A stretch of 40,000 nucleotides of DNA from Myxacorys californica WJT36-NPBG1 (GCA_019359315.1 JAHHHO010000021.1:18078-58077); one strand, 5' to 3'; positions 32,563 through 37,997 are shown, counted from the first letter of the stretch. The notes: a model not told the origin generated them from the sequence alone. Program-made: numbers and translations.

Positions 32563-33078
32563 CTATCGAGAAGATCTGCTCCGCTCCTTCATTCTCTCAC
32601 CCACCTCTTCAAATTTGCTAGTGAGGCGATCGCTCCATTCCTTAATGTGTTCATCCACCTCTTCAAATTTGCTGGTGAGGCGATCGCCTAGCTGATCAAT
32701 CATCTCATCATTAATGCCGAAATCTCCATCATCTTCGATATCAGAATCTCTATTATCATCTGCCTCAAACCTTTTCCGTCCTCTGCTGCTGAAACTGTAG
32801 GCATCGGCATACCCTATCTGCTTAAATTTTGGTGCTGAAGTTTCCTCCAAGCTTTGCTGTAGTGCCAGCAACCGATCGTCCTCTTCCTCGCCGCTTACTA
32901 GCCCAAACTCAAGACCATAACCGAATTGGGACGAATTCAGAGATTGTTGCAATGCCAGCAAACGATTGTCCTGTAGATTATCATCTTTTTCATAAGATGT
33001 AGCTTCAGAGAAACCCGCCTGTGCTTTTTGTTTGCAACGTTCGATTTGTTGTTCCAGGCTGAAGAGGCGATCGCTCAT
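32563..33078 (-). CDS. Acidic repeat protein (171 aa) with an N-terminal 'DRLFSLEQ' motif
   Basis: It begins 'MSDRLFSLEQQIE'. Internal copies are 'DNRLLALQQSL' and 'DDRLLALQQSL'. The C-terminal tandem 'GDRLTSKFEEVDEHIKEWS / DRLTSKFEEVGERMKERS' comes from a 54-nt DNA repeat at about 32590-32695. Confidence 0.55.
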   Translation of the reverse strand: MSDRLFSLEQQIERCKQKAQAGFSEATSYEKDDNLQDNRLLALQQSLNSSQFGYGLEFGLVSGEEEDDRLLALQQSLEETSAPKFKQIGYADAYSFSSRGRKRFEADDNRDSDIEDDGDFGINDEMIDQLGDRLTSKFEEVDEHIKEWSDRLTSKFEEVGERMKERSRSSR

Positions 33079-33184
33079 GCTTGTTACTCCTGACTTGTAT
33101 CATAAAGCGTTAACGTGACTTAACAGAATCCAGTTCGATGTTGGGTTTCACAAGGTTCAACCTAACCTACTTGCTGAGCCTAAT

Positions 33185-36100
33185 TTAGCCATCGATCAAG
33201 TCTGCAAGCGTATCCCAAGCATCTTTCTCGCGGCAGGTCATCATTTGCACAAACTTCTCTGGAGTGCCAGCTAGGTGAAGAATCGTGAGCATCGCTAGCC
33301 TGTTCTCGCTGGTCTGAGCGCCACCACCATGGATCGTGTCAGCCGCTGCAATCAAAGCTTTGGCTTGTGGATAGTAGAAATTGACCGCAGGCTTGACTTT
33401 CAAAGTAATGAACTTGAGGGCAGAGTAAGCTGTGATTAACAAACCAAAGGGAGTCACCTTAAAAGCCGTTTTGACAGCGTTCCAATCGATGGAGTTAATT
33501 GATGTATCGATCGCCGCTATGACCCTATCAGTCGTAGGAAGTTTGAGTTTCTTTTCCCCGTATTCCTTGAGCCGATAGAGACCAAGCTGTTTTTTCATCA
33601 TCTTGGGAAATTCGATCGTTGCCTGCCATGGAGTCAGGACATTAGCCCCAAAAGTAACCATAGTACCGCTATAACCCAAGATCGAATACCCAATTAAGCC
33701 TGCATTAATCAATTTATTAATGACTGCGCTCAGCCCAGACCAAACTCCCATAGTCGCTAAGGTTGGAATTGCGCCCTTCACCGTAGCAAACTTCTCCTTA
33801 AACCATTCAGACCAAGGCTTCTCGCCTGTCTGCCGACCCATGTGTTTGATCAGGTCAATCAGTGGCTGGAGTTGTTGATCGAGTAGGGCAAGTTCGGGGT
33901 AACTGCTGGTATCAATGTCAGTAGAAGCAGCAGATGGAACTTCAATGGTGAGTACCATACCGCGCTCTGAGTTCTTGTCGGTTGCCAATTTTTTGAGGAC
34001 AACCTCTGATTTCTGGGTAAATGTCTTAAATCGATCGCGAACGGCGGCAGCATCTAGGGAGATTCCCTGCTCTGCATGGGCTAAACTGCTAACCGCACTG
34101 AGCATATCGTTAAACAAGGAATGGGTTTCGTCGCCTAATATGTCCCATGCCACAGATAGTAATGTGGTTGCTCCAGTTTGATGAGCCAATGCTTTTAAAG
34201 CTTCGTCAAAGTTCAAATATCCCAGAAAATCTCTATATTGAGGAATACCCCATGCGCCGTACTTACTCTCAAATGCAAGACGACCCTTCAGGAGATCGTT
34301 AAATGTTTTGGCATTGAAGTCTGGTTCCAGGGGAATTTCCTCATTTTTGACAGCCGCATTCACTGCGAGCGCAAAAGTTGTCAATCGTCCACGAATGGCG
34401 GCTTCATCCAAAACCACTCCCTTTCTTGCCCTCGCCAAAGTGTCTGTTGCAGCTTCGATTTTGGTCATTTGGATTTTGGTCAACTGTGGAGTCGGCGTTT
34501 GCTCGTGTAAGATGTCCCAGGCTGTAGAAAGTTGGGAGAGAGCGCCACTATCTTTGGCTAACTCTGACAGTTTCCGGTTAGACGATAACTGACTTAAAAA
34601 GAACTTCAATTGAATCTGCCAATCTAAATTCTCAGACTTAAGTCGGGTTTCGAGCATGGCATTAAAATCTGATTCCAAGGACAAGGAATCTGCAAAATAG
34701 GCTCCTCGATCGCTTGCGAGCTGCTCCTCCAGATTCAAGGCAGCATACATTTCTGAATCAGGAAAATCAGATATTCCCTCATCCACTGATTGAGTTTTGC
34801 TCTGTTTAGGTGGGGTCCAAACCGGGATGCAACTTCCTTCGCCTTGAGCACTGGGCATAAACAAAATCTGCATTCCAATACAGGTCACATCGCCATTGAT
34901 CGCTGCATCAATGGGGTAAGTTCCATTTTTGTTAGGGTTGAAGTCTTTTCGTCCTGCAAAATACTGGAAGAGCGCATCAAAATGCTGTTCAGTCCAGGCA
35001 TCGGGGAAGAACGTAGACGCATCTTTTTTCTCTTTTTGGGTTTCTTTGTGCTGAATTTTTTGCTGATAAACTCCACATTGATCGGTTACAGTTGGTTTAC
35101 CAATTCGTTGGAATTTCGCATCTCCTGTTTCGTACCCCGTCCAGTGATAGCCCGTCAATGCCATGGGATCAGCCTTGGTACCACCGATGCTGATATGGTG
35201 CCAATACCGTTCCTTGAGATTTTGGGCGGTCACTTTAGGCGCAGAGGCTTTTTGCCAAAGTGTCTCGACTGCTGTACTGATATTGGGATCATCAGTTGTA
35301 GGGCTATATTTCTTGCCATACCGCTTCTTTGCTTCGCTCTTTAAGCGGGTTAAATACTTGCTTTTTAGCTCATTGGGATTGGGTGGAACATTCTCAAGTA
35401 GAGTGCTAATGTCGTTTTCCTCTAGTTGAAATTGCATGGCTGGTTGCCAAAGTTGGTCAACACTGAGCGCGGCAACATCTGCCGCTAATTCATCCTCATT
35501 CCACTCTAAGGGTTGGCCGATCGCAGGTGCTATAGGAGTGTCTTCCTCGGCATCGTAGCCGAATGAGGATGCTTTTTCCTCCTCATCTAAAACAGCATCG
35601 AATTCATCAAAGGTTTGCTCCAGGGAAAAAGTGCCCAGGTCAAACGCCGTGGCGTGAGCCATGCTCCTGCCCATCTGGTCAAACACATCATGAGCACTGG
35701 GCAGTTTCGGGGGTAAGGATTGTGCCTGGGACGGAGGCGCGTTGTCTTTCGGGGCAGGTCCTGGGGGAGCGGATCGCTCAGTTGGAGGAGCAGGCGTTGT
35801 CTCTGCTGGTTCGTAGGTTTTCTCACCCCGTAAGATGGCAGCAACATCGGCAGCAAAGGTCTCAGCATCAGCGGACTGGGAAGTCTCGGCCATGCTATGC
35901 CCCAAGGCATCAAGTTCCAGGGCATCAAAATCGATCGCTGCTGCTTGCTCGAAATCGATCGCTGCTGCCGACTTTTGCGGTGAATGAGTGGGATTCACCA
36001 CCGTGGCTTGCACTGGAATTGCCTCAGAAGCGGGATCGGGCTGACTATGGGAAATTAGAACATCTTCGTCATCGTGATCCAGGTCATTGGTGTGACTGGT

Positions 36101-37027: not shown

Positions 37028-37121
37028 CAGAAGTAGAAGGCTGAAAGGGGGTGAGAGTGGGGGAGCGGGAATTGAGGATCAGGGATTGGGAATGGGGTGT
37101 ACTTCGTTAAAGTGACGGTTG

Positions 37122-37997
37122 CTATGAGGGTAAGGACTTAGGATTGGGTGGGGGTGGAATGGGAGTGGTAGTGGTATCAAAAAGGTCGGGAAGTGGATCA
37201 TCCCAATCGTCTTGCAGATCTGCGATCGCCTGAGCTTCCACATCGATCGTGCGGGTTGTTTGGGCCGTGGCGAATGATGCATCCTCAAAGTCAGCACTGG
37301 GGTCGCCCCCGCGGGCAGACTGCATCATTTGCAGGAGAGAGCCATAGGACGAACCGTCGCCAGACCCATCCGTCCTGGGAGGAGGCGTTGAAGTTGGTAA
37401 ATCTGCATCGGGCAAGTCAATGTCTGGCAGGTCAATGTCTGGCAAATCAATATCTGGCAGGTTAAAGGCATCCGTTTCAGATATCAAAGGTTGCTCAGTA
37501 GAGGGGTCAGTAGCTGAGAAAGCCAGGGGGAGCAAGTGCTCTTCGTCGGGTTGGCCTGCTGTCGCCGCACCAGAGTGTGAATCGCTAAAAAAGGAGGGTT
37601 CAAGCAGGAGATCATCTGCCTCTACTGCTGCATCCCTCAGTTGTTGTCGCATCATGTTGTATTCCAACCCTCTGGTTCGGCTTTCCAGACGATTTGCTAA
37701 GCTCCTGTAGGAAAACCAATCGGGTCTGGCAACAGAACTGGAAAACAATTCTGCCGCATCATCCGTAACTTGTTCATCTTCATATTGATTTGCAGTTTCA
37801 TTCTCATCTTCGTATTCATAGTCATCCTCATAGTCCCCTTCATCCTCTAACTCAAGGCGATCGCTCAATACAGGTGTCTGCTCATGCTCAGTCTGGGGTA
37901 ATTCGCTCCTGGAACCGTAGGCGGACTGCTTCCAGCCCAACAGAGATTGCTCGAGATCGAATAGGCGATTGTGGCTGGGGTGACTGGAGGAAATCAT
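37122..37997 (-). CDS. Highly acidic, probably disordered protein (291 aa) with an N-terminal 'NRLFDLEQSLLG' motif
   Basis: It begins 'MISSSHPSHNRLFDLEQSLLGW'. It has D/E/Y-rich runs and 'LPDIDLPDIDLPDIDLPDADLP', encoded by a 15-bp repeat at about 37396-37460. The tail is Pro-rich. Confidence 0.55.
   Translation of the reverse strand: MISSSHPSHNRLFDLEQSLLGWKQSAYGSRSELPQTEHEQTPVLSDRLELEDEGDYEDDYEYEDENETANQYEDEQVTDDAAELFSSSVARPDWFSYRSLANRLESRTRGLEYNMMRQQLRDAAVEADDLLLEPSFFSDSHSGAATAGQPDEEHLLPLAFSATDPSTEQPLISETDAFNLPDIDLPDIDLPDIDLPDADLPTSTPPPRTDGSGDGSSYGSLLQMMQSARGGDPSADFEDASFATAQTTRTIDVEAQAIADLQDDWDDPLPDLFDTTTTPIPPPPNPKSLPS

Follow-up and report, generated by a model that had tools for sequence, protein, structure and literature searches.

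We have analysed a 40,000-nucleotide window of the Myxacorys californica WJT36-NPBG1 genome (contig C125:18078-58077 of the assembly; coordinates are window positions unless marked otherwise), which encodes three consecutive proteins of 291, 1280 and 171 aa, named H291, I1280 and J171, that share a short N-terminal motif, M1. Our results indicate that M1 most likely serves as an address tag for a toxin-delivery system that has not been described. We consider it probable that the three proteins are the cargo and scaffold components belonging to a conserved but uncharacterised gene cluster associated with toxins, in which M1 would act as the N-terminal client tag. The original prediction had proposed a tag for recognition, loading, secretion or docking, and sequence comparison agrees with it, since M1 heads otherwise unrelated enzymes encoded after the conserved cluster in at least 11 phyla and is essentially absent elsewhere.

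Within this genome, M1 is confined to the three proteins. HMMER models of a 10-14-mer motif were too insensitive, and regular expressions and a position matrix were used instead. The expression [NDS][RS]L[FL].L[EQ]Q[SQ][LVI] was run against all six-frame open reading frames (ORFs) of the 5.97 Mb genome down to a length of 40 aa. It gave six matches, all within H291, I1280 and J171, which are present as the ORFs originally predicted. The internal recurrence of the motif was also confirmed, with two copies in I1280 and three in J171. The matrix, which was built from other loci, gave five of the six sites scores of 18.5-30.4, the five highest in the genome; the best site elsewhere, among 2.2 million residues, scored 16.3. 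The sixth site, DRLFSLEQQI at the N-terminus of J171, scored 15.0, which is inside the genome background range.

As had been observed, the three proteins are rich in Asp and Glu (22.0% in H291, 23.8% in residues 1-500 of I1280 and 23.4% in J171, against an average of 12.3% for the other proteins of related loci) and contain short repeats, namely FDW[DN]EAIxLxY three times in I1280, LPD[IA]D four times in H291 and a 54-nt tandem repeat in J171. On the one hand, this biased composition would suit a reading in which M1 arises by chance or from low complexity in acidic, repeat-rich proteins, or is left over from duplication and has no function. On the other hand, comparable matches occur nowhere else in the genome, synonymous sites vary between the copies, and M1 is kept in basic, non-repetitive proteins of distant phyla amid differing surroundings, so that we regard this explanation as practically negligible. 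The varying codons, those of Leu and Ser, indicate that selection acts on the peptide and not on a DNA repeat; a DNA-level repeat or recombination site was dropped on the same ground. Acidity does not belong to the tag; in the other loci, the stretch of 40 residues behind M1 is basic, with a net charge of about +7.6 outside cyanobacteria.

The evidence from other loci carries the argument further. The consensus of M1 is approximately N-R-L-[LF]-x-L-E-[QKR]-x-L, often followed by x-G. The expression N[RSKHQ][LFIY]..[LIVM][EDAQS]..[LVIM] matched 64 of 172 proteins encoded downstream of the cluster, 59 of them within the first 40 residues, compared with 10 of 1067 other ORFs (two within the first 40). 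At a matrix score of at least 12, we found 86 sites in 66 of the 172 downstream proteins, representing 41 of 61 loci, and in 54 of these 66 proteins the first site stood no later than residue 15. Judged by matrix score overall, M1 is present in 41-45 of the 61 loci, and inspection by eye adds further ones. Control sequences amounting to 358,506 aa gave seven sites, six of which were within the core proteins D and B, and non-system ORFs gave a single one in 167,780 residues. The M1 genes follow genes E, F and G of the cluster, which in the window occupy 38033-40000. M1 is thus the opposite of a motif that is common in unrelated acidic proteins and has no conserved neighbourhood.

Outside cyanobacteria, the usual form is M-x-N-R-L-x-x-L-E, and for 19 of 24 motifs the initiator Met is the residue two positions before the Asn. 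Cyanobacterial M1 begins after 6-12 residues. Examples of N-termini with the motif are MSNRLLDLEASV in Gemmatimonas (L027), MVNRFAQLESDL in Planctomycetota (L038), MNRFLELEKS in Trueperaceae (L047), MHRLLELEREL in Saprospiraceae (L058), MNRFLFLESDL in Sinomicrobium (L074), MMNRLLALENEV in Myxococcales (L026) and MSNRLADLEQT in Hahella and strain HdN1 (L059, L069). Hahella sp. NBU794 and strain HdN1, whose genomes are complete, each have a single DNA match to the pattern for M-x-N-R-L-x-x-L-E, located at the effector gene of the cluster. When 55 otherwise unrelated cargo proteins were aligned with MAFFT, the sole conserved block was MxxxNRLxxLExxL. The loci missed by the matrix mostly carry degenerate forms seen by eye, such as MSLFQLQKDV, MALRLTDLQSRV and MAMRLHELDRRL. 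Additionally, core protein D of four cyanobacterial loci (L015-L018) has an internal M1, NN[ST]LLSLEQSL, at residues ~277-365.

The cluster that M1 follows is itself conserved. Here, the order on one strand is glmS, TnsA, TnsB, an S8 subtilase (433 aa), X (481 aa, with Ala-rich repeats), B (625 aa), C (363 aa, C363), D (758 aa, D758, with two Gly/Ala-rich hydrophobic stretches), E (~312 aa), F (189 aa, F189), G (265 aa, G265), H291, I1280, J171 and an SLH-domain protein (615 aa, K615). A scan of one genome per species confirmed 204 loci, 80 of which were fetched for analysis. These span at least 11 phyla (Cyanobacteria, Planctomycetota, Myxococcota, Gemmatimonadota, Alpha- and Gammaproteobacteria, Desulfobacterota, Bacteroidota, Acidobacteriota, Actinomycetota, Deinococcota and the candidate phylum Eisenbacteria), and the gene order is constant throughout them. 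The S8 subtilase is present in 75 loci, B in 81, C in 82, D in 80, and F and G in 67 each; in 75 of the 82 loci that hold a C363 homologue, the subtilase is the first gene. Upstream of it in other phyla lie regulators (sigma-54 activators, BTAD proteins and histidine kinases) and no machine ATPase. The G family comprises 365 representatives, clustered at 50% identity, among 1.84 billion proteins.

Apart from the subtilase, the core proteins have no known family. Searches against Pfam, NCBIfam and PADLOC gave nothing above cut-off except S8, with only weak TIG and weak TmtA matches besides, and Pfam found nothing recurrent in 28 D and 25 B homologues. The 859 homologues of C363 are all annotated as hypothetical. 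No PDB sequence matched the profiles of the C, G, D and B families, the EndoU region of I1280, its C-terminal 500 aa or the E protein. The subtilase (L002:9121-10422; PF00082, E 5e-52) is a Peptidase S8 with an intact D/H/S triad, whose DTG, HGTH and GTSHASP motifs can be read in the sequence. No core or cargo protein has a signal peptide and no cluster protein has an ATPase domain. The motif had not been recognised from any described system, and a description of cluster or motif was not found in the full-text literature searched, most subscription journals being outside its scope.

The proteins downstream of the cluster are of two types. The first gene after G encodes a conserved family with M1, often in multiple copies (two to four in the scaffold type), together with two further elements, M2 and M3; effectors have M1 alone, without M2 or M3. 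The M2 expression [FY]D.[DNG][EAQTG][AP]I.[LMV] matched at 38 sites, spread over 26 loci, and in none of the 1067 other ORFs. M3 covers ~40 residues with the consensus HD[IV]FDQMGxxMxYA[NT][ST]FDLGxxxLEQRFDEFD, and it holds an M1-like core (FSLEQTF, LELEQLF). M2 and M3 are as system-specific as M1. In I1280, an acidic trafficking or scaffold region (residues 1-500, with two M1, three M2 and M3) precedes an EndoU_bacteria domain, so that the suggestion of a toxin-like domain on one of the three proteins was correct. The match (E 5e-6, 27.4 bits) is just above the curated cut-off of 25.3 bits, and proteins related to I1280 are named 'Bacterial EndoU nuclease' by the Joint Genome Institute. The C-terminal 500 aa are common to a homologue in Nostoc sp. 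CCY 9925 that is without EndoU.

At their C-termini, the homologues of residues 1-500 of I1280 have EndoU, Ntox11, a metallo-beta-lactamase fold, a DXD glycosyltransferase or the membrane-localisation domain MLD. Ntox11 was found in Dulcicalothrix and C70 in Potamolinea. As these homologues swap the C-terminal toxin behind a kept N-terminus, the architecture is that of polymorphic toxins, in which a shared N-terminal trafficking region is joined to exchangeable C-terminal toxins; I1280 is a fusion of a conserved, scaffold-like N-terminal region bearing M1, M2 and M3 to exchangeable toxin domains. Among 55 cargo proteins, Pfam detected Peptidase_C70 (23), PG_binding_1 (5), Phage_lysozyme (4), Ntox11 (3), M15_3 (3), M15_2 (3), OmpA (3), C92 (2), PAD (1), patatin (1) and EndoU (1).

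A second cargo class is formed by protein E, which has a variable N-terminal domain followed by a conserved C-terminal module, EPILLNGMKVxFDxP..PVTL (here EPILLNGMKVIFDQP..PVTL); in several phyla, E is only 60-73 aa long. One E-type protein bears Ntox11, which means that the same toxin domain uses both routes. In one cyanobacterial metagenome-assembled genome (L015:13473-19470), we observed three tandem E-F pairs, which suggests that E and F form a specific pair.

In the cluster, the genes for the subtilase, X, B, C, D, the E module, F and G are thus followed by a scaffold protein with M1, M2 and M3 and then by effectors. Based on these comparisons, we propose that M1 would be a short N-terminal recognition peptide marking the clients of the cluster machinery. 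M1 would probably form about three turns of an amphipathic helix predicted to dock onto a conserved core subunit. The helical hydrophobic moment of M1 is 0.41, compared with 0.19 at strand periodicity and 0.31 for shuffled sequences, and this value together with the hydrophobic spacing suggests a short amphipathic helix. We infer binding of M1 by a core protein, with the helix as the bound form and with export, packaging or delivery as the outcome; the term delivery follows from the type of cargo. Any enzyme gaining M1 would then become a client, and in a parallel second route the toxin would be fused to the small conserved E module and pair with F. The specificity for the neighbourhood, the N-terminal position, the conservation over at least 11 phyla amid unrelated linkers and domains, and the free exchange of toxins all fit an address tag. 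A Sec or Tat signal was dropped because M1 has no hydrophobic core.

Several points weigh against a client tag of this kind. The role of M1 is read from sequence comparison. Considering that there is no core ATPase and there are no signal peptides, the route by which the peptidoglycan hydrolases would reach the cell wall is unexplained. Between a quarter and a third of the loci have only degenerate M1, which the matrix missed and which was accepted by eye. The internal M1 copies in scaffold proteins, in J171 and in some D homologues are not explained by a strictly N-terminal export signal. An immunity gene is not evident beside the EndoU toxin; the next gene is that of J171, with three M1 and no known immunity family detected.

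The internal copies lead to another possibility, namely that M1 is a leader-like recognition or cleavage site of the cytoplasmic S8 subtilase, whose action would activate or free the cargo and cut the scaffold at its multiple M1. Internal copies suit a cleavage site better than they suit an N-terminal export signal, and a subtilase with an intact triad heads most loci. Subtilisins favour hydrophobic residues at P4 and P1, and the L-[LF]-x-L spacing would supply them at both positions; a single Gly is frequent at position +12 after M1 in cyanobacteria, although only in a minority of copies overall. However, the loss of 10-20 N-terminal residues has no obvious activating effect on an enzyme of 400-1000 aa, a protease site needs no extreme N-terminal position and yet M1 strongly prefers one, and the periodicity is helical and not extended. 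We therefore consider cleavage as the main role rather unlikely, but it is compatible with a client tag, as the tag may be both docked and removed. Two other leaders were dropped: a class III lanthipeptide leader of the LLDLQ type, because the cargo consists of large enzymes and LanKC is absent, and a double-glycine leader with a C39-peptidase ABC exporter, because the cluster has no ABC transporter and only the minority of M1 is followed by Gly, which is single.

The abundance of M1 in the scaffold type would also be expected if M1 helices associated with each other, so that the effector copies bundle with those of the scaffold and the scaffold binds the machine via M2 and M3. The division between a protein with two to four M1 plus M2 and M3 and effectors with M1 only, the M1-like core of M3 and the amphipathic, leucine-zipper-like hydrophobic spacing point in this direction. 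Nevertheless, ten residues are short for a stable coiled coil, and all M1 copies could equally bind one core subunit; homotypic association thus appears distinctly unlikely.

A client tag invites comparison with known delivery systems. In type VI secretion systems (T6SS), the MIX, FIX and RIX markers are likewise short N-terminal elements on polymorphic effectors tied to one delivery machine, and T6SS effectors also have a dual mode, with tagged cargo on the one hand and toxins fused to a small structural module, here the E module, on the other. In contrast to those markers, M1 has ~10 residues and stands at the very N-terminus, and to our knowledge its sequence is unrelated to the MIX, FIX or RIX consensus. 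Moreover, VipB/TssC (PF05943) is unmatched in the genome, which is 99.98% complete, and the cluster has no Hcp, VgrG or ClpV domains. The type VII secretion system (T7SS; LXG/WXG100 and the ESX mycosin) resembles our system in the N-terminal helical targeting of polymorphic toxins and in a subtilisin-family protease within the locus. However, WXG100 (PF06013) is unmatched in the genome, the locus has no FtsK/SpoIIIE ATPase, with the S8 protease as the sole component in common, LXG is a ~200-residue domain compared with the 10 residues of M1, and the cluster occurs mostly in diderm phyla.

In Photorhabdus virulence cassettes (PVC) and other extracellular contractile injection systems (eCIS), disordered N-terminal signals load diverse toxins without adjacent immunity genes, which is similar to the present case; we know of no fixed sequence motif in eCIS signals. 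The toxin repertoires overlap in Ntox11 and OmpA-type domains, both of which were assigned to PVC-type systems by Zhang et al. 2012 (PMC3482391). Unlike these systems, the cluster is without genes for a sheath, tube, baseplate or AAA+ protein. This overlap could mean that M1 directs its proteins to machinery whose genes lie in another place (for example a contractile injection system, T6SS or T7SS) and that the neighbouring cluster is unrelated; one Phage_sheath_1 gene does exist on another contig. However, M1 genes directly follow the cluster from S8 to G in at least 11 phyla, Phage_sheath_1 is unmatched in four of five other cluster-bearing genomes (three of these four being titled as complete genomes or chromosomes), this genome lacks VipB/TssC and WXG100, and no relative of C363 or of the cluster was found in the IMG/VR contigs scanned. 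A machine encoded elsewhere is accordingly a very remote alternative. The Phage_sheath_1 gene (C23:24054-24506, 486-aa frame) has no relation to the locus and is part of either a prophage tail or a contractile injection system.

Polymorphic toxin systems as a whole (PMC3482391) share the conserved N-terminal trafficking region and the exchangeable C-terminal toxins. Their catalogue of trafficking modes comprises the type II and type V secretion systems, T6SS, PVC, T7SS, TcdB/TcaC, PrsW and MuF (Zhang et al. 2012, PMC3482391); the mode of M1 is outside this catalogue, and unlike in these systems an immunity gene was not recognised. Finally, the targeting peptides of encapsulins and microcompartments are also short, terminal, amphipathic helices joined by a poorly conserved linker to a cargo enzyme, with cargo genes adjoining structural genes and with scaffolds that have repeated short motifs. 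Here, the cargo consists of toxins and cell-wall hydrolases, as opposed to metabolic enzymes, and Pfam found no BMC-H, BMC-P or HK97-type shell in the core proteins or in the 25-28 homologues each of B and D. Given the poor C363 model and fold searches that gave no useful information, the core proteins may include a divergent shell fold.

We can say less about the machinery than about the tag. The AlphaFold2 (AF2) model of C363 is poor (predicted local distance difference test, pLDDT, 61), and its VIA-align matches are generic helices only; with low confidence, a long Ser/Thr-rich beta-hairpin with a Gly/aromatic tip is predicted between highly conserved blocks of C. The AF2 model of G265 (pLDDT 78) matches only in a C-terminal IPT/TIG Ig-like domain (Z ~9) and a small helix-hairpin-helix-like middle part (Z 6-7); its N-terminal domain gave no fold match. 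Look-alikes in the ESM Atlas belong to unnamed clusters only, with nothing for D and B and one weak DUF2589 lead (0.78) for C363, and hhalign gave no relationship between the C and G families. B ends with a conserved acidic tail, DDFDDW. At somewhat less than an even chance, we tentatively suggest that cluster and scaffold together form an undescribed ATPase-less delivery or toxin-packaging apparatus, with M1 as the universal client tag and with C363 and D758 as membrane-active parts; the hydrophobic tip of the long C363 hairpin and the Gly/Ala-rich hydrophobic segments of D758 are the features that suggest the latter. Such an apparatus would span at least 11 bacterial phyla and show no recognisable homology to the numbered secretion systems, to contractile injection systems or to protein compartments. 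It is a conjecture of ours that the core is a multi-protein, membrane-active assembly joined by short linear motifs.

The features of the window are collected in the following table.

Table. Positions of M1 and of related features in the window, with the genes that carry them.
Feature	Positions	Strand	Remarks
H291	37122-37997	minus	291 aa, acidic, begins MISSSHPSHNRLFDLEQSLLG; first gene after G
I1280	33185-37027	minus	1280 aa counted from GTG
J171	32563-33078	minus	171 aa, acidic, begins MSDRLFSLEQQIE
M1 NRLFDLEQSL in H291	37941-37970	minus	residues 10-19; matrix score 30.4
M1 NSLLALEQSL, I1280 N-terminal	36962-36991	minus	expression and matrix
M1 NSLFALEQSV, I1280 internal	36638-36667	minus	expression and matrix
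M1, three copies in J171	33043-33072, 32938-32967, 32848-32877	minus	expression
M2 FDW[DN]EAIxLxY, three copies in I1280	36830-36862, 36509-36541, 36434-36466	minus	region 36434-36862
LPD[IA]D, four copies	37401-37460		15-nt tandem repeat
M3 element HDVFDQMGRSMAHATAFDLGTFSLEQTFDEFD in I1280	35573-35695	minus	kept across phyla in the first gene after G
EndoU_bacteria (PF14436) domain of I1280	34892-35188	minus	residues 614-712; Pfam
G265	38033-38830	minus	265 aa, most conserved core protein
F189	38820-39389	minus	189 aa, core protein F
E, 3' part	39325-40000	minus	gene leaves the window; 312 aa from likely ATG
K615, SLH-domain protein	30450-32297	minus	615 aa
DNWALLQSFF in K615	32226-32255	minus	N-terminal W-motif
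DNWDVLESMF in K615	32154-32183	minus	N-terminal W-motif

For I1280, the original prediction had used the start MSIFNGYNPNSLLALEQSLHG, that is, the ATG at 37018. No known domain was found in H291 in profile searches. In F189, the conserved part is formed by the last ~90 residues (38820-39092), which contain PPTQxxETTxxPVFHRL; the N-terminal extension contains NWNLFDAA (39219-39242) and RFDLFDAA (39099-39122). A scan for promoters and terminators gave no minus-strand site within the intergenic gaps, which is weak and at most compatible with a single operon.

The Trp/Phe-acidic motifs that had been reported in the neighbouring genes are indeed present in the SLH and 189-aa proteins, but they are distinct motifs and no variants of M1. 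In cyanobacterial loci, DNWxx[IL]xxLF is found at the C-terminus of X proteins (L008-L033) and at the N-terminus of SLH-type proteins, where it occurs twice, here and in related loci. As compared across these loci, it appears to be a separate docking motif and no variant of M1. K615 further has Ala-rich 45/90-nt repeats, one predicted transmembrane helix (~residues 331-350), a beta-helix and SLH domains, and it is likely an envelope-anchored accessory of the cyanobacterial version of the cluster. Its Ala-rich AAKSDIATAKDNAV units come from 45/90/270-nt tandem repeats at 31390-32058, and the X protein (L002:7672-9117) has units that resemble them; such repeats give rise to long spurious antisense ORFs.

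In cyanobacteria, the cluster was found in only 2 of the 401 genomes sampled, and this sporadic distribution suggests that it is probably mobile. In this genome, a Tn7-like element inserted at glmS surrounds the cluster: on one side (L002:11721-14893 on contig C125, beyond the window end) are TnsA and a TnsB-like protein of 778 aa together with a 166-aa rve fragment, and on the other is TnsD/TniQ (25813-27762, minus); no TnsC was seen between them. Plasmids of Tolypothrix PCC 7601, Tolypothrix PCC 7712 and Microchaete diplosiphon carry the cluster, where it is annotated as hypothetical proteins. Accordingly, the Tn7-like element here and the plasmids in Tolypothrix/Fremyella both indicate a mobile cluster. 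On a plasmid of Tolypothrix sp. PCC 7712 (L088; NZ_CP063787.1, 137197-148694), the cluster stops at G, and an IS701 transposase comes directly after it; none of the genes in the 26.7 kb examined carries M1, and the cargo therefore appears to have been lost or moved.

Other mobile and defence-related genes were observed in the window. An IS4/IS5-family transposase (29474-30232, plus) lies between the SLH gene and TnsD, and an ISL3-family transposase is located at 1176-2837 (minus). Positions 6154-23554 probably form a DNA-modification or defence island, which contains DndB (14980-16074), two UvrD-type helicases, a PD-(D/E)XK nuclease, a 1662-aa DEAD-box helicase and a TGT-like protein with DUF6884 (21467-23554).

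In summary, we regard the tag as an effector marker motif of a polymorphic toxin system, and the apparatus behind it has a substantial chance of being a machine of a new kind. Should M1 be a client tag, it would provide a 10-residue handle on a widespread toxin system whose B, C, D, F and G have no known family, and it would allow the effectors of this system to be listed in any genome. The effectors found so far include peptidoglycan hydrolases, C70 proteases, nucleases, a phospholipase and an arginine deiminase, and the glycosyltransferase- and MLD-type domains hint at eukaryotic targets. The tag may also expose a new trafficking route of polymorphic toxins, which would bear on microbial competition in soils, mats, sediments and cyanobacterial communities.

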